Positions 45,478-57,829 of a stretch of DNA of 64,000 nucleotides are shown here, in pieces (within the stretch, counting starts at the first letter, position 1; every line of letters begins with the position of its first letter). The stretch is from the NCBI GenBank assembly GCA_003193925.1, contig PSPG01000002.1, forward strand, positions 32,001-96,000, written 5' to 3'. This stretch comes from Candidatus Thalassarchaeum betae (lineage in GTDB: Archaea > Thermoplasmatota > Poseidoniia > Poseidoniales > Thalassarchaeaceae). The notes below the pieces were generated by a model that worked only from the letters and a program-made list of their open reading frames with translations, was not told where the DNA came from and did no database searches. The position numbers were made by a program, and so were the translations under genes.

Positions 45478-48400
45478 ATGGTAGCGTGTGCTTCGTCTGG
45501 AGACCCGTCACGGCTGCGTGAAGCAGCCCTTGGCGTCGCGCTGATGCTGCTGATGTCATTGTCTCCTGTACTCATGCAGTTCGATGCCCACGTCCGGATG
45601 CAGACCGGGGACGGCACCCAGAGCCCATGGTCCGACGGTGGTCAGCCATGGCCGCAGTCGGGCAGGACGCCGGGCAGGGTAGCGGATGTCCCGGCGCACA
45701 GCCCTGACGGGGGTGCTGGCAACGGTACGCCGGCCGACGCGGCTGAACTGATGTCGATAGTCGAGCCAGCGGTGAACTGGGTCTACGGCTCGTACTCCAT
45801 CAGCACAGACGCGCTGGCCACCCCGATTGCGGACCTGTCTGCATCGGTGACCAAGGACGAGGCGGCTGCCGAGCGCTGCGGTGGCAGTTCACTGTTCACC
45901 ATCCTAGTCCAGACCGATTCCAATTCGGATCACACATTCCTCAGGATCGTCGAGGGCGAGGATGCCGACCTCGCTTGGTCGGTCGACTTGGGTTTGACCG
46001 AGTACGTGAAGGCTGCCCCCGTAGTAGTCGACGTCGATGGCGACGGGATGCAGGAGGTCCTCGTCGCATACGACGCCTCTGGAACCCTCTACCTCGACGC
46101 CTGGGCTCCTAGGCTGACCTGCTCGGTCACGGGATGGTCCCCTGGAGGGCATGGGGGAGAATTACTGTGGTCTTGGAGCGACGAGTCCCTGATGATTAGC
46201 AGTAATCAAGGGCCTTACTCGAGCAGCGCCCTCGGGGGGCACAAGCCGACAACCCAGCCCCTCCTCGCCGATCTGGACCTAGACGGGGATGCCGAAATTG
46301 TAATTGCCGCCATAGACGAGGTCTCCGGGGAACCGGTCGTGGTCGCCCTAGGGCTGTCCGAAAGCGGGGCCACCCTGCTTTGGGACGCTGCATTGGACAA
46401 GGGCAGTCACCCCTCTGACCCGGCCTTCGCACAGACCGATGATACGACGGGGTACGTGCTCCTGACGACGACCCAGCACAACAGTGGAGCCATGTGGGTT
46501 TGGAAGTTGGACTCAGCGAGCGGCGATTCCAGTTGGGACGGGCTGTCCCTGACGAACTCCGATGGCGACACGGACGCCCCGCACATCAGGCTACCCGGGC
46601 CCGTGATAGCTAATCTCGACAGCGACTCAGCTCCTGAGATGGTGCTCACGATACCGACGGACTTCGACGGCTCAGGCTCTGTCGACGGGGCGGAGTTCAT
46701 CGGAATGGAGATTGGCAACGGCGACGTGCTCTGGGACTTCGAGGCATCGAACGGCTACGCCGACGCCCCTCCTGTGGTGATTGACACCGATGGAGACGGT
46801 CAGCACGACAGGGTGTGCTGGGTGACTTGGTCCCAGGAGACCACATGGGCCAGACATGGCCATGCCGGCTGTCACGACGTGAGTGGTTCCAGCCCGGATC
46901 AGGCCTGGCAGAAGAGCCTTGAGCAGAGCAGCGGCTATCCGAACGACGAGATAGCCGTCGCCCCCCCGACATGGATGGACATAGACGGCAACGGCGAGCA
47001 GGAGCTACTGGTCGCCTACGGCCGCTCGCTGTGGGCCTTCGACGGTGACGATGGCTCGACTTTCGTTTGGGGTGGATCCATCGATCTGCCCCATAGGACT
47101 TGGTCCGCCCCCGCCCTGGCTGACATGGACGGAGGTGCGACTCTCGATCTGGTTCTCGGTGACACGGTCGTGTCGCACGCCCTGGCTGATGTCAGGCCCC
47201 TGCTGGACCAAAGGGGCATCGAGTTCAGCCCCAGCGAGCCCGATCCCGGCGAGGCTGTCACCGTGACTGCGCTGTTCGAGAACTCGGGGACTGCCGACAC
47301 TGATGATGAGACCGAGGCCAAGCTGTATGCGAACGGCCAGCTGATAGCCAGCTACGAGGCAGGCACCATGGAGCCAGTTGGCCCAACCGGCGGGGGCTCC
47401 TTCGAGTCATTCAGCGTAGAGTGGAGTGGGCCGCTGGGCGAGCACGTCTTCGAACTGGTCCTCGACCCCTACTCCAACGTCTCTCAATCAAGGCGCGACA
47501 ACGACGCCCAGACCACCACGCTAGCTATCGTGGCACCCTACAACGCGACTTTCGAGATACCTACCGAGCCAATCAGGGTAACTCCCGGGGAAAGCGCGCT
47601 GGCGGCCCCTAACATCCGCTCGACGGGCAGGCTTGCAGGAACCTGGAGTCTTGCCGTGGACGACTCTTCGCTACCTGGAGGCTGGACTTGGAGCGACGAG
47701 TCTGGCGGGGGCCTGAGCGGAATCGAGATAGACGTCGATGCGGTATGGGCCCCCCATCTCCGCATTCATGCCCCAGCTGACGCCTTGGGCTCGGATGCCG
47801 GTCACCTCGGCCTCACTCTGACTCTGGACGACGACCCGGACAACGTCAGTGTGTCGGCTTCCCTCCCCATCGAGGCCAACCGGACCCGTGGACTATCCCT
47901 GCGTGGACCCGATGGAACCGCTGCGAGCACCGGTTACGGCCTGCTGGGCGCCGACGCACAGGCTTGGATGCTGCTCCAAAACCTCGGTAACGCCCCTGAG
48001 AACCAGATTACGATTTCGTGGAGCGGCACCGCATGGGGCACGGATCTCAGACTGTACGACATGGCTGGTATCGAGCAGCCGGCACTGTCTCTAGCACCAG
48101 ATGAGGTGCTGCTTCTGACAGCGAGGATGGAAGTCCCGGATGATGCTAATCTGGGCGACTCTGTGGCCACTCCTCTGTCTATGTGCGTAGGCAGTGGAGA
48201 GGAAGAGACCTGTCAGACGATCTCACTCACCTTCGAAGCGGCGGGGGTCGTGACAGATGTCCACCAACGCAGCGTACCTGCGCAGGGTTTGGAGTGGGCC
48301 GTCCACGCTGATATGCCCATCGGGGCGATGCAACTTACCTGGTCGCTCGCCGACGCTGGGATGACCGTACAGGGATGGTCCTGGAGCGCGAGTGGTAACC

Positions 48401-51069
48401 TGTCGATTGCCGGTGACACGGTCATCATGACAGGGGCAATCGGTTCCCAGGCCTTCGGGACCCTGACCCTCGGCCTACCCGATGACTCCCCTCCGGCCTT
48501 CCACTCCTTCTCTGACGCGAGCGACCAATCGGCTAATCACGTCCTCAGGGTCTCTCTCGAAGTCCTGCAGATATACAGGGCCTCGCTATTGGTGATCTCG
48601 CCCACGGAGCAACCTCACTTGGTCGAGGTCAATGAGGAGTCTCTGGTCATGGTCCGCCTCGAGAATCCTGGCAACGGCGACGACACTTACCACTTGACTT
48701 ACGAAATCCTCCTCGACGAGAACATCACCGAGGACCCGGGTGTGGGGGTTGCCTTCTCCAATGACATGGTGTCCTTGGGCGCAGGTAGTCTGACGAACAT
48801 ACCTGTGACCGTTGTACTACCTGACACCACCCCTGCTCGTGCCCCCGTCAGTATCGAAATCCACATGACCTCGATGGGAGACCAGTCAGTCAGTGACTCG
48901 GACGTCGTGATCCTCGAGGCTAGTCAGGACCACCGATGGAACATCACTGCGAGCGTCGGTGAGTCCATCGCCGATGGAAACACCTTCGCCGTCGCACCCG
49001 GAGGAACTCTGGAGGTGAGCGTCGAAGCGAAGAATGTCGGTAATCTGATCGATGACCTGACTCTGACAGTGAGTTACGAGGTTACCTTGGCGGGCGATGA
49101 CGCCTCACAAGGCTGGGACTCCCAAGGAGATACAGTGGTCGACATCGGAGTGAACCAGACTGCACTGATGACGGTCAACGCGACCGTGCCTGCAGACGCT
49201 TGGAACGGCTCTACAATGCAAGTAACCGTCACCGCCACTGCTCAGGATGAGGAGGTGGGTTCGTTCACTTTCGGCATCGAGGTGACTCATGTGCCAGCTT
49301 GGTCGGCCTCGGCAGACCAGACCTACCTCGATATACACCCCAATGGCTCAAGCATAGAACTGACCGTGATTCAGCAAGGCAACTCCCCCACGATGCCATA
49401 TGCTACAGTGTGGGTGAGCGGTGAGAGCGGTTGGCATATTGTCGTCTCCGACGAACTCCCTGTCCTTTCCCCCGGTGAGACTGCTCCGATGATGCTCAAC
49501 ATCACCCCGCCTGACACAGCGCAGCATGGCAGGGCAGTGGAACTCCACGTCAAACTAAGGGAAGGCGACGGTAGCGGAGAGACAGAAATCACTCTGCCTC
49601 TGCGTGTCGCCATCATCAACGACTTCAATCTGAGCGGGCAGGGGCCTTGGTTCATCTCTGGCGATGGGGGTCACCCAATCGCGGAACTTCAGAACCTCGG
49701 TAACGCCCCCACTACCATCGCCCTGCAGGTCCTGAGCCTGCCTAGCGGCTGGATTGTCGTCGGGCAGACCGAAGTCGTCCTCGGGGTCGGTGAGATTAGA
49801 GGTGTTCCCCTGGAGGTGATTCCGTCTGCTGACTGGGACGGCAGCGCCCAGACCGTACGCATCCTCGCCGAGGATGCAGACGGGAACCAGCGCGAGGTCT
49901 CCCTGAACACCGAGCAATCGTCGTACTCCTGGGCATCTTCCCCCGTGATAGTGGTAATGATGGGTGACCATGCGCTGCTTCAGATCCACGGCACCACCTC
50001 TGCTTCCAGTGTCGTTGATTCCGTGTCCGGACAGTTGCAATGGGACGATAGGGGCGGTTGGGCGTTGCCGGCAGTGGCCAGTGGGAATGGCTCCTTGAGC
50101 GTGGACTCATCCAGCCTCGACTACGTCTCCCACGTCGTCGAGCCGTCCCTCAGGTCTGCTGAGTGCGAGATTCTCGGCAGTTTCGAAGAGGTAGTCGCAT
50201 ATTGCTCTATATTCAACGGGACGGAGCCGTTCTCATACTCGATTCTCCTAATCGACGACCAGGGGGCGATGCTGAATTTCGCGTCCGGTCACGTCCCTGC
50301 CAACTCCCCCCACGGCCCGATCAACCTCAGTGCCGAGGGCTGGAGTCCGGAGCCGGGCAGCAGGACCCTGACGCTGAGACTGCTAGATGAGAGGGGTTTC
50401 CAAGTCGCTTTTGATGAGGCTAGCTTCCAAGTCAGAAGGAGCGACTGGAACATAGGCGTAGTGGAACTAGAGCTTGACGGGGAGGGCTCAAACCAGGAAG
50501 TCAAGGTCCTCACTCGAAGGACCAATTACCAACTACTGACTGATGCCGACTGCCATCTCTCGCTAGTCGCAGGGGAGCATTCCTCAACCCACCGAGTGGA
50601 TTGGAGCAGCACATTGGCCCCCATCTTCAGAATTGACCGTCCCGATGTCGATGATGGCATCGAAATCGTCGTGACTATCGGGTGCGAGTTCCCCTGGGAC
50701 TCAGATTCCGACCCGAGCGACGACGAGGCCAGACTGATTCTCTCGGGCGGCTCTATGGAGCTCCCGGAGTTCGACATGGGGACCGCAGTAGTTGCAGCCC
50801 TGCTGGTGATCGGTGCATCTGTGGCCTTCGCGTGGATGCTCAGAAACTACCGCGAGGGCAAGGAGCTCATGGAGATGGCCATGGCGACGGCAGAGGAGAG
50901 GGCAGCCAAGAAGAGTATCGAGCCAAAGGCCCCTGACACTCCTGAGCCGGTGGCTGAAACACAGGACGAAGGCATCAGCGAAGATGCTGCTGAACCGGAG
51001 TCCGAAGTCGAGGAGGGGGCGTTGGACGACTTCGAGGACAGGCTCGGGCGCCTGATGCGAGAAGACTAG
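45478..51069 (+). CDS. giant surface protein with FG-GAP beta-propeller, CARDB and NEW3-like Ig repeats
   Basis: DVDGDG/DLDLDG/DIDGNG repeats, N[LV]GN Ig motifs, C-terminal TM and acidic tail. Confidence 0.9.
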   Translation: MVACASSGDPSRLREAALGVALMLLMSLSPVLMQFDAHVRMQTGDGTQSPWSDGGQPWPQSGRTPGRVADVPAHSPDGGAGNGTPADAAELMSIVEPAVNWVYGSYSISTDALATPIADLSASVTKDEAAAERCGGSSLFTILVQTDSNSDHTFLRIVEGEDADLAWSVDLGLTEYVKAAPVVVDVDGDGMQEVLVAYDASGTLYLDAWAPRLTCSVTGWSPGGHGGELLWSWSDESLMISSNQGPYSSSALGGHKPTTQPLLADLDLDGDAEIVIAAIDEVSGEPVVVALGLSESGATLLWDAALDKGSHPSDPAFAQTDDTTGYVLLTTTQHNSGAMWVWKLDSASGDSSWDGLSLTNSDGDTDAPHIRLPGPVIANLDSDSAPEMVLTIPTDFDGSGSVDGAEFIGMEIGNGDVLWDFEASNGYADAPPVVIDTDGDGQHDRVCWVTWSQETTWARHGHAGCHDVSGSSPDQAWQKSLEQSSGYPNDEIAVAPPTWMDIDGNGEQELLVAYGRSLWAFDGDDGSTFVWGGSIDLPHRTWSAPALADMDGGATLDLVLGDTVVSHALADVRPLLDQRGIEFSPSEPDPGEAVTVTALFENSGTADTDDETEAKLYANGQLIASYEAGTMEPVGPTGGGSFESFSVEWSGPLGEHVFELVLDPYSNVSQSRRDNDAQTTTLAIVAPYNATFEIPTEPIRVTPGESALAAPNIRSTGRLAGTWSLAVDDSSLPGGWTWSDESGGGLSGIEIDVDAVWAPHLRIHAPADALGSDAGHLGLTLTLDDDPDNVSVSASLPIEANRTRGLSLRGPDGTAASTGYGLLGADAQAWMLLQNLGNAPENQITISWSGTAWGTDLRLYDMAGIEQPALSLAPDEVLLLTARMEVPDDANLGDSVATPLSMCVGSGEEETCQTISLTFEAAGVVTDVHQRSVPAQGLEWAVHADMPIGAMQLTWSLADAGMTVQGWSWSASGNLSIAGDTVIMTGAIGSQAFGTLTLGLPDDSPPAFHSFSDASDQSANHVLRVSLEVLQIYRASLLVISPTEQPHLVEVNEESLVMVRLENPGNGDDTYHLTYEILLDENITEDPGVGVAFSNDMVSLGAGSLTNIPVTVVLPDTTPARAPVSIEIHMTSMGDQSVSDSDVVILEASQDHRWNITASVGESIADGNTFAVAPGGTLEVSVEAKNVGNLIDDLTLTVSYEVTLAGDDASQGWDSQGDTVVDIGVNQTALMTVNATVPADAWNGSTMQVTVTATAQDEEVGSFTFGIEVTHVPAWSASADQTYLDIHPNGSSIELTVIQQGNSPTMPYATVWVSGESGWHIVVSDELPVLSPGETAPMMLNITPPDTAQHGRAVELHVKLREGDGSGETEITLPLRVAIINDFNLSGQGPWFISGDGGHPIAELQNLGNAPTTIALQVLSLPSGWIVVGQTEVVLGVGEIRGVPLEVIPSADWDGSAQTVRILAEDADGNQREVSLNTEQSSYSWASSPVIVVMMGDHALLQIHGTTSASSVVDSVSGQLQWDDRGGWALPAVASGNGSLSVDSSSLDYVSHVVEPSLRSAECEILGSFEEVVAYCSIFNGTEPFSYSILLIDDQGAMLNFASGHVPANSPHGPINLSAEGWSPEPGSRTLTLRLLDERGFQVAFDEASFQVRRSDWNIGVVELELDGEGSNQEVKVLTRRTNYQLLTDADCHLSLVAGEHSSTHRVDWSSTLAPIFRIDRPDVDDGIEIVVTIGCEFPWDSDSDPSDDEARLILSGGSMELPEFDMGTAVVAALLVIGASVAFAWMLRNYREGKELMEMAMATAEERAAKKSIEPKAPDTPEPVAETQDEGISEDAAEPESEVEEGALDDFEDRLGRLMRED

Positions 51070-53684: not shown

Positions 53685-54665
53685 TCAGTTCCTCCTGACC
53701 AGTAGGATTACTATGAGGACTGACAGGAGCGCGATCGCTATCCAGCGCTGATCGAAGTCGCTCTGTACCCCTTCATCGTTAGACAGGAACAAATCTTGGG
53801 CAGTGTCCAGATGAGGAGACTCGGTCGAGGCCATCAGCACGATGCCCTCTATGTGGTATGGGACCCCTCCCCTCATTCCCTTGGAAACCGCCTTTGAATT
53901 CGTGATTGAGGCCATTACGAAGTCACAGGTGTCGGCCCTCCTGAGATTCTCGATGGCCTCGAACTCGCCGCCGCTGTCCAATGGTCTGAAAGGAATTTGC
54001 ACCTCATAGTGACTCTCCATCCTACTGACGACCATCTTGGAAATCTCGACCTCGTAGCCCTGCATTTCGGCATTGTCGTCTAGGTTCGACATCGGAGAGT
54101 CCTGATTATACATACAGGCCACCAATTCCTTCTCGCCCTCTAAGATACGATAGAGTGTGCCGCCCTCGGTCGGAGTCGGCCAAGCACCAATGACACTGAC
54201 GAAATCGGAATCTTTCAGCTCGGTCTCACCGAGGAACCACGTCAGGTACGCCTGCTGGCCGGTGCTTGAGGAGAATATCCCCCCGAGAGCGGCGTTGATG
54301 GCCTGCAGTAACTCTAGGTTGCCCCAGTCGTCTTGAGTGTCGGATCGGGCCACCGGAACGTACGATTCGGTCTCCTCGACCATACCGAGGATGGAGAGTC
54401 CCGGCAGATTGGCCCTGTTAGCCGGATCGGCGGCGATCAGATTGGATGTCAGCATGAAGTCGATCTCACCGACCATAAGGGCGCGCATCGCGAACTGATG
54501 GTCCTCGTAGCCGGTCTCGATTATGTGCTCGTAAGAGTCGATGAGATGTGATGCGGGAGTCTCCTGAGAAGTTCCGACGTTGTACTGCAATCCACCTGCT
54601 GCAACGGCGGGTGGCGCGGATAGAACCAATGCGCTGAGGCAGAGTGCGACCAATACGCCCCTCAT
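53685..54665 (-). CDS. amino-acid ABC substrate-binding protein (family 3), apparently circularly permuted, with C-terminal TM anchor
   Basis: Signal peptide; both halves of SBP_bac_3 present in swapped order; divergent from permease and ATPase. Confidence 0.75.
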   Translation of the reverse strand: MRGVLVALCLSALVLSAPPAVAAGGLQYNVGTSQETPASHLIDSYEHIIETGYEDHQFAMRALMVGEIDFMLTSNLIAADPANRANLPGLSILGMVEETESYVPVARSDTQDDWGNLELLQAINAALGGIFSSSTGQQAYLTWFLGETELKDSDFVSVIGAWPTPTEGGTLYRILEGEKELVACMYNQDSPMSNLDDNAEMQGYEVEISKMVVSRMESHYEVQIPFRPLDSGGEFEAIENLRRADTCDFVMASITNSKAVSKGMRGGVPYHIEGIVLMASTESPHLDTAQDLFLSNDEGVQSDFDQRWIAIALLSVLIVILLVRRN

Positions 54666-54751
54666 GCCCGCGAGGGCCCGCAGGGCCGACTTAGCATTGG
54701 TGGTCCACGAGACTATATCCGAAGAAGCGCGTCAGGGGGCGAGGGTTCGCG

Positions 54752-57076
54752 TTGTCCGGTGGTATCTCACGACTGCTCCACCCAACGGGGAAAAGTGGCA
54801 ACCGCTACGTCGTCATCCTCTCCTTCTTGATTCTAGCAACCCTGATCACTCCCATCCAGGGAGTCGAGTACAGAAGCGGTTGGGATGTCGCTGACAGTGG
54901 CACCGATGCGGATCTTTTCACGGCGTCCTACGATGGTGAGTCGGTCTTCGCCTTCGGTGCTGGCGGCGTGATTCTCCAGAGCGACGACAAGGGTTCTACC
55001 TGGGTTCAGCTCAGCTCCCCTGCGACGGCCGACCTGCGCAGGTCCGACTCAACAGAAGCAGTCTACGACCCATTCACAGGCGATTTGAGGGAGAAGGGAG
55101 CATTTGCGGTCGTCGGTGACGGTGGGGCGGCCTATCTCCTAGCCGTTGGCAGCGATACATGGCAGAACATCTCCTTAGAATCCGCCGTTGACTTCAGAGG
55201 GGTTGCGATGACCAGCGCTACCTCATTGGTGACCGTAGGACCGAGCGGGGCTATCTGGCAGTACCAGAGCGAGGCTTGGACGCAGAGAGACTCCGGAATT
55301 GCCTCGGATCTCAATGACATCTCCTTCCTCGATGGCAGCTCGGGCTTTGCAGTGGGTGACAATGGCATGATACTGGCCACCGATGACGGCGGACAGAACT
55401 GGGAGTACAGAGAGGCTCCCGAAGGGCTGGTCGCTAACATTGTGGCAGTCGACTACTACAGCGCCATTCGTGCCTATGCGATAACAGACGAAGGGCACAT
55501 AGTCAAGTCAGTCGGAACGCCCACTGGCACTGCTGTCGGGTTTGTCTGGGAACTGGTCGAGATCGAGTCGGAGGGCAGGAACACCAGCCTGGGACTCGAA
55601 CTGAGCTCGATCGACGTATCGTCTGTGAACAAGTTCCTCGTCGCCGGTCCCTCTGGATACGTCGCTCTGTCTCTTGACGGCGGCAACATCATCATCCCCC
55701 AAATGAACCCCCTGCCTAACGTCACGGACTTCAATCACGTCTCGACGCTCAACCTGTTCGATGCTGTGCTCGTGGGTGACGGTGGCGTCATCCTGTACAG
55801 CGAAAATGCGGGAGAGGACGAGTCCATCGGGTTCCAGGTCGTCGACTTCAGTGACTTCGGCCAGTTCGTCGACTACTCCAAAGGCATGCTGATGGACGGA
55901 TTAATCGCCACTATCAAAATCGTCGTATTCGGCATCATGCTGGGTTTTTTCCTAGGAATCACGCTCTCGATGATGAAAACCGCTCCGACCACCCTGAAGG
56001 AAATTGCACAACTCAATCGCTATGCGTTGGTTAGGCTCTTGCTGCTCCCAATCTGCGCAATTGAGGCGGTCACGATTGGTTTGGTGAATGGGCCGATGCC
56101 CGCAACTCGAGAGGCGGGAAGATTGCGTACGCTGTCCGCGACTTCCACGGGGCCCCTCAACACCGTAGCCCTGCGGGTATTCGGATTGGGAATGCTAGGC
56201 TACGGGACGAAACTGCTTCTCGCTGTAGTCCCCGTAGTCAGGGCCCTCAACCTAGACGGTTGGGATTACATCTACGCGCCTATAGGCATCATAAACCCGG
56301 AAGGCGTCACTGGACCGATAAGTTTCGTGCCCTTTCTCAGGGTCCTCTTAGGGATAGCGCTGATCCTCCTGGGCCTGCTATTCATGACCTCGAAGGAATC
56401 ATTCCCCAAGAGAGAGGTACGTCTGCCATTCCGTGGCATCACGGTGAAGTGGAATCCCTGGGGTGTGAGGCCGCTGAACGCTGTCGCGACCGTATACACC
56501 GACATCTTCCGCAACACCCCTCTGCTCGTACAGTTCTTGTTCATCCACTTCGGGCTCCAACTGGGCAAGCTGGTTCAGGGGCCCGCGGAGGCGATGCTAG
56601 CGGGTTCCACCAGTTTCTTGGCAGAATTCATCATTGACGAATTCCTGAGTGACAGGGCCTACATCAGCGCCATCTTCGCCCTCGGCCTCAATTCTGGCGC
56701 ATACCAGTGCGAGACCATACGTGGGGCCATCGCGGCGATTCCCTCTGGCCAGATGGAGGCAGGCAGGAGCATCGGACTGAACTACATGCAGACAATGAGG
56801 CGCGTCATCATGCCGCAGGCAATCAGGATCTGTATACCGCCCATGGGTAACGAGATGGTCAACCTCGTGCTCAACTCGTCGCTCGCCATGGTCATTGGCT
56901 ATGCCGAACTGACACGAAAGGGCAAGCTGGCCATCGCTATTACCTGGCAGGTCTTCTGGGGTTGGGGCATGGTCCTGATCTCTTACTTCATCGTCACTTG
57001 GACACTGGCTCTTCTGCTCAGGTATCTCGAGAACAAGACGAGGATACCCGGACTCGGCATTTCAGGAGGTGCATGA
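54752..57076 (+). CDS. polar amino-acid ABC permease (HisM/GlnP type) fused to an N-terminal YCF48/BNR beta-propeller
   Basis: SDDKGSTW and TDDGGQNW BNR repeats; FRNTPLLVQ; AYQCETIRG..IPSGQMEAGRSIG EAA loop. Confidence 0.9.
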   Translation: MSGGISRLLHPTGKSGNRYVVILSFLILATLITPIQGVEYRSGWDVADSGTDADLFTASYDGESVFAFGAGGVILQSDDKGSTWVQLSSPATADLRRSDSTEAVYDPFTGDLREKGAFAVVGDGGAAYLLAVGSDTWQNISLESAVDFRGVAMTSATSLVTVGPSGAIWQYQSEAWTQRDSGIASDLNDISFLDGSSGFAVGDNGMILATDDGGQNWEYREAPEGLVANIVAVDYYSAIRAYAITDEGHIVKSVGTPTGTAVGFVWELVEIESEGRNTSLGLELSSIDVSSVNKFLVAGPSGYVALSLDGGNIIIPQMNPLPNVTDFNHVSTLNLFDAVLVGDGGVILYSENAGEDESIGFQVVDFSDFGQFVDYSKGMLMDGLIATIKIVVFGIMLGFFLGITLSMMKTAPTTLKEIAQLNRYALVRLLLLPICAIEAVTIGLVNGPMPATREAGRLRTLSATSTGPLNTVALRVFGLGMLGYGTKLLLAVVPVVRALNLDGWDYIYAPIGIINPEGVTGPISFVPFLRVLLGIALILLGLLFMTSKESFPKREVRLPFRGITVKWNPWGVRPLNAVATVYTDIFRNTPLLVQFLFIHFGLQLGKLVQGPAEAMLAGSTSFLAEFIIDEFLSDRAYISAIFALGLNSGAYQCETIRGAIAAIPSGQMEAGRSIGLNYMQTMRRVIMPQAIRICIPPMGNEMVNLVLNSSLAMVIGYAELTRKGKLAIAITWQVFWGWGMVLISYFIVTWTLALLLRYLENKTRIPGLGISGGA

Positions 57077-57829
57077 ATGCCAGAGAATGTTTTGAGGGTC
57101 ACTGATTTGCACAAGATCTACGCCGGAGGGGTCCATGCCGTCCGCGGCGTCTCGTTCGAGGTCAACGAAGGGGAGTCGGTGGCGATCATAGGTCCCTCAG
57201 GAGGCGGTAAGTCGACTGTGCTGCGATGCATCAACCGGCTGATTGAGCCAACCGAGGGAGTCGTGAGGCTGCGTGGCGAGCGGATCAACACCCCTGGAGC
57301 CGATGTCAACGACGTCAGGTCGAGAATCGGGATGGTATTCCAGTCATTCGAGTTGTTCGCGCACCTGAAGGTCCTCGACAACGTTACACTCGGCCTGAGG
57401 CATGTCAGGAAGATGAGCAAAGAAGAGGCCAAGGAAAGAGCTCTGTCGGTGCTCGAACGCGTTGATCTTCTGGACAGGATCGATGCCTATCCTGGCAACC
57501 TCTCTGGCGGGCAGAAGCAGCGCGTGGCAATCGCCCGGGCTCTGGCGATGAGCCCTGAGGTCATGCTGTTCGACGAGCCGACCAGCGCCTTGGACCCCGA
57601 GCTGATGGGCTCGGTTCTGGCTACCATCAGGAGACTGGCTGACGAAGGAATGACGATGGTGATTGTAACTCACGAAATCAGCTTCGCCGAGGACGTAGCT
57701 GACCGTATCATCTACCTAGATGAGGGCGTGATAGCCGAGCAGGGACCCTCCTCGATCATTGAGGACCCGCAGAGCGAGCGGCTCAAGAGGTTCCTGTCCG
57801 CGATTAGCGAGGGGGAGGAATATCAGTGA
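57077..57829 (+). CDS. polar amino-acid ABC ATPase (GlnQ-like)
   Basis: GPSGGGKS, LSGGQKQR, FDEPTSALDPE. Confidence 0.95.
   Translation: MPENVLRVTDLHKIYAGGVHAVRGVSFEVNEGESVAIIGPSGGGKSTVLRCINRLIEPTEGVVRLRGERINTPGADVNDVRSRIGMVFQSFELFAHLKVLDNVTLGLRHVRKMSKEEAKERALSVLERVDLLDRIDAYPGNLSGGQKQRVAIARALAMSPEVMLFDEPTSALDPELMGSVLATIRRLADEGMTMVIVTHEISFAEDVADRIIYLDEGVIAEQGPSSIIEDPQSERLKRFLSAISEGEEYQ

Follow-up and report, generated by a model that had tools for sequence, protein, structure and literature searches.

A circularly permuted family-3 solute-binding protein encoded beside a polar-amino-acid-type importer in Candidatus Thalassarchaeum betae

Solute-binding proteins of family 3 (SBP_bac_3; type II, cluster F) are a standard model for ligand recognition, for import by ATP-binding cassette (ABC) transporters, for the ligand-binding cores of glutamate receptors and for biosensor design. 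Canonical members such as GlnH, HisJ/ArgT, ArtJ and AncQR (4zv1) are composed of two lobes connected by two hinge strands, and a GlnP/GlnQ-type ABC importer is encoded alongside. One binding protein permuted in this way in nature has been described, TpMglB-2 (Tp0684) from Treponema pallidum, classed as 'Type Ic / Cluster Bc'. TpMglB-2 still binds glucose, the first three strands of one lobe have moved to the C-terminus, a fourth hinge crossing has been added, and the homologues are probably tethered in the view of its authors (PMC4990184). Within family 3, a circularly permuted LAO-binding protein was engineered for Förster resonance energy transfer sensors; it still binds lysine, with a dissociation constant of 107 µM, and also arginine (PMC5087393). 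We found no natural permutant of family 3 in the full-text literature, a coverage outside which most subscription journals fall. Here, we describe the gene of such a protein, P0001, located on the minus strand at 53685..54665 of a 64,000-nucleotide stretch of DNA from the archaeon Candidatus Thalassarchaeum betae (assembly GCA_003193925.1, contig PSPG01000002.1, positions 32,001 to 96,000 of the forward strand). This whole stretch is called the window below, and positions refer to it.

In our best reading, P0001 is a circular permutant among the cluster-F binding proteins, conserved in its group, tethered to the membrane and remodelled in its pocket. With canonical family-3 proteins it shares homology over the whole domain, the two lobes, the two hinge strands and the importer encoded alongside. 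It differs from them by its rotated order, by the replacement of two characteristic Arg and Asp residues and by its probable tethering through a C-terminal membrane helix that leaves old lobe 2 ("old" refers here and below to the canonical arrangement). Like TpMglB-2, P0001 is a natural permutation of an ABC-transporter binding protein for which tethering is thought likely. TpMglB-2 belongs to the type I sugar-binding class, which has no sequence homology to family 3, and it gained a fourth hinge crossing, whereas P0001 stays at two. The engineered LAO permutant is of the same family as P0001, and its old termini are also joined by a linker. Unlike P0001, it is man-made; as described, it is cut in an inter-lobe linker rather than inside lobe 2 and its binding residues are unchanged. 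The gene and its parts are the following.

53685..54665, minus strand: whole coding sequence of the circularly permuted SBP_bac_3 protein P0001, 326 residues plus stop, from the list of open reading frames and their translation.
54594..54665, minus strand: putative signal peptide, residues 1-24 (hydrophobic windows 1-22; helix 2-15 in the structure model, then low predicted local distance difference test score, pLDDT).
54216..54587, minus strand: segment I, residues 27-150, corresponding to canonical positions 131-240 (four swapped-order comparisons; order of secondary structure in the model).
54180..54215, minus strand: linker, residues 151-162, from the old C-terminus to the old N-terminus; WPTPTEGGTL comes next, and the region is colinear with the junction of the relative P0080.
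53790..54179, minus strand: segment II, residues 163-292, corresponding to canonical positions 1-127 (PF00497 match, four comparisons, fit to 7a99).
54444..54446, minus strand: S74 codon, in the column that holds the LGD-motif Asp across the family (merged alignment).
53886..53888, minus strand: V260 codon, in the column that holds the TxTxxR-motif Arg across the family (merged alignment).
53688..53789, minus strand: C-terminal anchor region, residues 293-326, with an acidic tether, the motif FDxRWIAI, the membrane helix and the basic tail RRN.
53700-53747, minus strand: predicted membrane helix, residues 307-322 (hydropathy windows 306-312; model helix 306-325).

A first-pass annotation of the gene had proposed that P0001 is a circularly permuted family-3 protein. 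Four comparisons, independent of each other's models, bear this out, with the two halves of the protein aligned in swapped order and E-values down to 1e-12. A phmmer search against PDB sequences aligned residues 22-115 of AncQR with 191-292 of the query and 147-231 with 54-144. The profile A1, made of 18 members of the window's family, placed query residues 30-144 on 124-231 of the same AncQR chain (independent E-value 8.9e-8) and 192-292 on 23-115, for a whole-sequence E-value of 7.5e-13. BLASTP was run against the 240-residue domain of P0087, the one relative of the same clade that is in canonical order; residues 27-150 of P0001 matched 131-240 of this domain (2e-7) and residues 163-292 matched 1-127 (1e-12). 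Finally, a hidden Markov model (HMM) built only from 23 proteins in canonical order aligned residues 29-148 with 156-267 (2e-4) and residues 163-301 with 27-156 (2e-9). With this HMM, the swapped order was found in all nine family members tested. The canonical colinear order appeared in none of the four comparisons, and a single colinear alignment, the result that would speak for an ordinary domain, was not obtained at the sequence level.

Together, the two segments of P0001 span the 240-residue domain of P0087 except for 3 positions. The canonical domain is present once and whole, with nothing duplicated, and the remainder of P0001 consists of the signal peptide, the linker and the anchor. 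The cut point lies between canonical positions 127 and 131, so that the order is rotated by about half the domain. We are close to certain that the permutation is real and the gene alive.

Searches of family libraries point to the same assignment. PF00497 matches residues 182-285 on profile positions 2-96 (E-value 1.6e-9; 38.1 bits against a cut-off of 26.4). It is the only Pfam family matching P0001, and no homology to the type I class (Peripla_BP) was found. Two PF00497 matches in swapped order had been predicted; Pfam returned one, for the second half only, because the copy of the PF00497 model has 132 positions. NCBIfam TIGR01096 reported two stretches of P0001, and the feature matches obtained in the ESM Atlas for the P0001 sequence led again to the same family. 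The motifs on which the first-pass annotation had relied are present at residues 30-34, 59-75, 140-144, 162-185, 203-208, 246-263, 268-274 and 289-293.

Most of lobe 2 is in segment I, along with the second hinge strand and the C-terminal helices, which end with WF. Segment II starts with the N-terminal part of lobe 1, continues through the first hinge and closes with the first lobe 2 strand, where it reaches the 'DL' motif. At the junction between the two, W162, P163, P165, G169 and L171 are invariant in the 18 aligned members. The N-terminal signal stretch is kept in 17 of these 18 members; the remaining one starts later. In P0001, the mean Kyte-Doolittle hydropathy exceeds 1.8 only at 1-22 and 306-326, and both stretches are helices in both AlphaFold models, in agreement with the C-terminal transmembrane anchor proposed earlier. 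Residues D305, R307, I309, I311 and L314 of the anchor region are invariant in the aligned members. The 276 residues between the hydrophobic stretches are acidic, with 44 Asp/Glu and 14 Lys/Arg. On this basis, P0001 would carry a signal peptide ahead of an exported domain, with a membrane anchor at the C-terminus. PGF-CTERM is an archaeosortase-type C-terminal sorting signal. The canonical-order relatives P0143-P0148 end with PGFE, a helix and a basic tail; the window's family has FDxRWIAI at this place.

In the structure models, strands and helices succeed one another in a rotated version of the canonical order. The AlphaFold2 model obtained with 18 sequences has a mean pLDDT of 75.4. With 54 sequences, the mean pLDDT is 87.4 and the predicted template modelling score 0.78, all five models lying at 84-87. 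The predicted fold is alpha/beta and two-lobed, with long hinge strands at residues 91-107 and 271-279. All 50 structural neighbours listed have the periplasmic-binding-protein fold, with Z scores of 8.4-9.7. The structural aligners used, Foldseek and VIA-align, are order-dependent, and the figures given here are for order-dependent rather than permutation-aware superposition. Colinear alignments of model residues 25-295 on whole chains have Z scores of 8-10, root-mean-square deviations (rmsd) of 4-7 Å and identities of 6-14%. GlnPQ SBD1/SBD2, YtmK and the cystine receptor score no better in this way than HisG, MetQ or porphobilinogen deaminase. Such fits are what the pseudo-symmetry of the two lobes would be expected to give. 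As we read it, old lobe 1 has become continuous and old lobe 2 is made from both ends, and a colinear aligner would therefore lay old lobe 2 on the canonical lobe 1 and the reverse. When placed in the swapped register, model residues 170-276 superpose on TmArgBP lobe 1, solved in isolation (7a99), with an rmsd of 2.2 Å and 18% identity.

Search for homologs of P0001 identified 78 homologous protein clusters with 35-96% identity, nearly all 303-328 residues long. Where the clusters carry source names, these are marine group II or Poseidoniales, and the named metagenome-assembled genome (MAG) records that carry the gene point to Candidatus Thalassarchaeum. The clusters themselves are named as ordinary amino-acid binding proteins or as hypothetical proteins. 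An exhaustive search among representatives added only three more close representatives, followed by distant relatives. Full-length copies were found in 11 of 121 order-level genomes, namely 6 of 6 in genus g1, which includes the window's own genome, 4 of 8 in g4 and 1 of 5 in g12. Independent metagenome contigs match the gene and its boundary with the neighbouring permease gene without a difference, with run X8 covering 53701-54996. Because these contigs agree and the clusters are many, an assembly chimera is excluded. The ratio of nonsynonymous to synonymous substitution rates (dN/dS) of the gene is 0.15-0.20 in four unsaturated pairs.

The gene faces the genes of an ABC transporter across a short intergenic region. 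The neighbouring features are listed below.

54666..54751, no strand: 86-bp intergenic region separating the divergent binding-protein and permease genes.
54752..57076, plus strand: 774-residue permease with a Ycf48/BNR-like propeller and a GlnP/HisM-type membrane domain, the presumed docking partner.
57077..57829, plus strand: 250-residue GlnQ-like ABC ATPase (Pfam ABC_tran, 4.7e-37).

The permease matches Pfam BPD_transp_1 (2.1e-15) and PSII_BNR (6e-12), NCBIfam GlnP (2.9e-35) and, above its cut-off, HEQRo_perm_3TM. The ATPase matches NCBIfam GlnQ with an E-value of 9.3e-85, below the equivalog cut-off. By these profile matches, the permease and the ATPase are of the polar-amino-acid type, the class that family-3 binding proteins serve. 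The propeller of the permease, about 330 residues, is N-terminal and presumably extracellular. About 150 extra residues with hydrophobic stretches are found between the first membrane helix and the GlnP-like core.

On the other side lies purC, on the same strand and, in the window, 21 bp downstream of the binding-protein gene. All 11 loci obtained by the genome search have the binding-protein gene between purC and the divergent permease gene, and so do all 14 loci from named MAGs; the two sets may overlap in genomes. The ATPase gene comes after the permease gene in the window and in 12 of the 14 MAG loci, and the contigs of the remaining two stop before it. Divergent pairing with the propeller-permease persists at protein identities as low as 34% and in three genera. 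A scan for promoters and terminators was empty, the promoters scanned being of the bacterial type, with archaeal ones not covered. Upstream in the window, 45478-51069 on the plus strand encodes an acidic surface protein of 1863 residues whose only membrane helix is C-terminal and whose tail is charged. Homologues of its C-terminal part adjoin purC in related genomes that have no binding-protein gene.

Taking sequence, model and locus together, we consider it reasonably probable that P0001 is at once a functional family-3 (type II, cluster F) circular permutant and a receptor for the importer next to it. The permutation and the conservation are shown by the comparisons above; that the protein is exported, anchored, able to bind a ligand, docked and active in transport is inferred. 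The signal peptide would direct export, and the C-terminal membrane helix would keep the protein at the cell surface. The chain would start at the second strand of old lobe 2 and cross the hinge into the old C-terminal helices; from there the conserved linker would run straight into the old N-terminus. The chain would next complete old lobe 1, recross the hinge, add the first strand of old lobe 2 and end in the tether. Old lobe 1 would be continuous and old lobe 2 contributed by both chain ends, the mirror image of the normal arrangement. With both hinge strands intact, a Venus-flytrap closure should stay possible. After capture of its solute, the protein would dock on the GlnP/HisM-type importer encoded 86 bp away on the other strand. 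Its role would be comparable to that of ArgT, which acts as an accessory receptor beside HisJ.

Several observations weigh against this reading, and the first of them concern the pocket. HMM-aligned pieces of 77 proteins were merged into canonical column order; in the 68 proteins that lie outside the window's family, conservation reaches 80% or more in 28 columns. Of these 28, P0001 retains 11 and differs in 17, which would also fit a protein that no longer binds a ligand. In the TxTxxR motif, all 68 relatives have the Arg and P0001 has V260 in its place, so that the canonical Arg is absent, as noticed in the first-pass annotation. None of the eight scored rows of the window's family has R in this column, where V, I, M or P is found instead. 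The Asp of the LGD motif, D in 97% of the relatives, is S74 in P0001; the family has S, T or P there in 8 of 9 rows and D in one. The PFE motif is PMS in the window's family. From the structures of GlnBP and LAO, we take the Arg to hold the alpha-carboxylate of the ligand and the Asp its alpha-ammonium group. Because Arg, Asp and 15 other conserved positions are replaced, the ligand of P0001 is probably not a free alpha-amino acid bound in the classical manner. Unlike P0001, the other archaeal permutants all keep the Arg and the Asp. Among them are P0083, P0093 and P0097, which have the same cut site as P0001 (type B, see below); this register is therefore compatible with an ordinary binding site, a point in favour of the reading above, as is the binding retained by the engineered LAO permutant.

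The transporter itself gives a second group of points on the same side. The propeller-permease and its ATPase are present in 44 of the 59 genomes of the family, with a conserved architecture. Among the loci examined from genomes without the binding-protein gene, 10 of 11 have purC directly beside the permease gene (four from g8, three from g4, two from g6 and one from g13). In the remaining one, L031 (g12), the permease has neither purC nor a binding-protein gene as a neighbour; L034, 678 bases at a contig end, was too short and is left out of this reading. Since the transporter is widespread without the gene, it does not need the binding protein. The binding protein is an accessory component, lost or gained repeatedly, even within one genus. 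Selection also has to be considered. In the same four pairs, dN/dS of purC is 0.025-0.10, so that the value of the binding-protein gene is 2 to 6 times that of its neighbour. As judged from these ratios, selection on the binding-protein gene is purifying and looser than on the housekeeping gene purC. Finally, the only signal in RNA libraries (runs X18 and X24) is one 151-nucleotide contig of X18, at 53938-54088 of the window, with one difference. This is only a weak hint of transcription, because the library, a marine metatranscriptome, may contain DNA.

One explanation of these observations is that P0001 delivers no solute and is a tethered structural or regulatory accessory, for instance in contact with the permease propeller or with another surface component. 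It would account for the loss of the Arg (0 of 8 rows), of the Asp (1 of 9) and of the other conserved columns (17 of 28 changed), for the transporters found without the gene, for a dN/dS above that of the neighbouring gene and for the patchy presence inside genus g4 (4 of 8). We nevertheless consider it unlikely. The replacing residues S253, T255, S231-G232 and SPMS at 190-193 are conserved within the family, which argues for a pocket that has been remodelled rather than one that has decayed. The hinge strands and both lobes appear intact in a confident model, and dN/dS is well below 1. Moreover, no signalling domain has been added, and the cytoplasmic tail has just 3-4 residues.

P0001 could also be a working binding protein for another translocator, its position beside the permease being an accident of insertion next to purC. 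The divergent pairing, kept in 25 of 25 loci (with the possible overlap of the two sets mentioned above), does not favour this, and binding-protein genes usually sit beside their transporter. On the other side, the adjacent transporter occurs without the gene in many genomes, and a second polar-amino-acid-type permease pair with an ATPase is encoded at the start of contig C8 of the same genome. This transporter could be the real partner of P0001, which is a further point against the adjacent importer as its partner. On balance, a service to another translocator seems to us quite improbable. The second ABC system (locus L035:376-3139) comprises a partial permease, a 495-residue permease and an ATPase, and what lies upstream is cut off by the contig end. 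That P0001 is not a real feature, either as an assembly chimera, as a decaying tandem remnant or as a canonical order with chance matches due to lobe pseudo-symmetry, is hardly credible: the full-length colinear structural alignments (25-295, Z 8-10) that speak for the last of these are loose and no better for family members than for HisG or MetQ, the swapped register fits lobe 1 of TmArgBP closely, and the swapped-order E-values, the intact reading frame in 78 clusters and independent assemblies, and purifying selection contradict it.

The favoured reading, a functional permutant, can be placed among other rearranged proteins of the same clade. The window's genome, 92% complete, contains only two PF00497 loci, and both encode circular permutants. 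No canonical-order family-3 binding protein was detected with PF00497 in this 92%-complete genome, which has at least two polar-amino-acid-type transporters. The second locus is the following.

Contig C7 of the same genome, locus L004:2886-6041, plus strand: P0080, a lipoprotein-like protein of 1051 residues, type A permutant.

In P0080, strand 2 of lobe 1 opens the family-3 part, which closes with strand 1 and helix 1 and is followed by two LivK-like domains (Peripla_BP_6). The junction is colinear in the two proteins, residues 115-220 of P0001 aligning with 217-321 of P0080 (31% identity, E-value 2e-13). It consists of the C-terminal helix, WF, the linker, PTPTEGG-TL, and the first strand and helix. 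In P0087, the same two pieces are the N-terminal prelude and the C-terminal tail of the domain. P0080 also shares a Cys pair, read from the sequences, that corresponds to C184 and C247 of P0001. The P0080 gene adjoins genes for a 1298-residue fused LivH/LivM-type permease and an ATPase, and its architecture is found in more than 100 protein clusters of about 1045 residues in metagenomes.

Mapping of the relatives on the canonical domain revealed three registers that share the junction, with cuts at about 57-66 (type A), about 128-133 (type B) and about 204 (type C); canonical-order members exist beside them. Like P0001, relatives of types A, C and B have the same C-to-N junction (WF ... TAT.YPTPTEGxTL), and those of types B and C have a C-terminal membrane anchor. 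Types A (P0080) and C (P0088, P0100) differ from P0001 by their cut points. Type C (P0088, P0090, P0092 and P0099-P0113) starts with two C-terminal helices, followed by the shared junction and the rest of the domain; it ends after the second hinge strand, and a tether rich in Ser and Thr leads on to a membrane anchor. NCBI labels two of the permuted proteins, P0112 (type C) and P0121 (type B), as Candidatus Heimdallarchaeota.

Search for structural similarities by a method independent of Foldseek gave PfVFT1 of Plasmodium falciparum (5jkq) as the top match of the P0001 model. Model residues 111-275 align with 26-197 of the chain over 157 residues, with a Z score of 14.6 against 9.4 for the next chain, an rmsd of 3.0 Å and 10% identity. 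The match takes in the continuous lobe together with the junction and the two helices ahead of strand 1. On this structural match, PfVFT1 may have a related, type-C-like connectivity. With type-C relatives as queries, 5jkq was not among the best 60 of 198 and the best 60 of 474 PDB sequence matches.

A careful maximum-likelihood tree was built from 73 rows. P0082, with 112 columns filled, was left out of both trees made, and P0089, P0150 and P0158, with long branches, were left out of the careful tree. Its well-supported branches require at least three changes of register involving type B, at least two involving type A and at least two involving type C. A canonical-order protein is nested inside type A, and two type-B proteins branch as sisters of canonical proteins. 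The members of the window's family form one clade (100/100) on a long stem of 1.05 changes per column, and this clade lies outside the other archaeal permutants, its attachment being unsure. The approximately unbiased test does not reject a tree in which all archaeal type-B rows are held together (p 0.088). Read from alignments and tree, the circular register is unusually labile in this archaeal clade. The same cut site seems to have arisen independently outside it: P0152, P0160 and P0170 have a lipoprotein-like N-terminus, a type-B cut and a much shorter junction, and they are nested among canonical-order proteins.

It had also been suggested that the permutation arose from a tandem duplication trimmed of its outer halves. 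This origin has indirect support, as the junction is shared with P0080 and its two pieces are the ends of the P0087 domain. No canonical-order tandem was present among the longer relatives (8000 candidates scored; best 120 of 144 matches). The longer relatives were type-A fusions with two LivK-like domains and P0174. The latter, 924 residues long and labelled Thermoplasmatota, contains two type-B domains separated by a long Cys/Asp-rich spacer and ends with a membrane anchor, which shows that multi-domain arrays exist in the clade.

These results allow a broader picture which, taken as a whole, we regard as tentative and rather doubtful. The clade would be a natural series of permutants, comprising the canonical order and at least three registers, generated repeatedly from tandem arrays that share one junction. 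Register B would be a half-turn along the ancient internal repeat of the fold, in which the lobes exchange their continuous and discontinuous roles, and such a half-turn could explain an independent origin of register B at least three times. In the window's family, rotation would have been followed by the rebuilding of the pocket for something other than a free alpha-amino acid.

P0001 is a rare natural rearrangement of a textbook fold. A conserved natural permutant marks where the fold tolerates new termini in nature, and its sister proteins, cut at two other places with one junction, offer a natural data set for the route by duplication and trimming. For the organisms, the gene may mark an accessory uptake component in Thalassarchaeum-like marine group II archaea. 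These archaea are abundant and uncultured, and their uptake is deduced mostly from transporter annotations. If the broader picture outlined above is true, the window's family would found a permuted cluster-F subclass in an archaeal group that ranks among the most abundant in the ocean.

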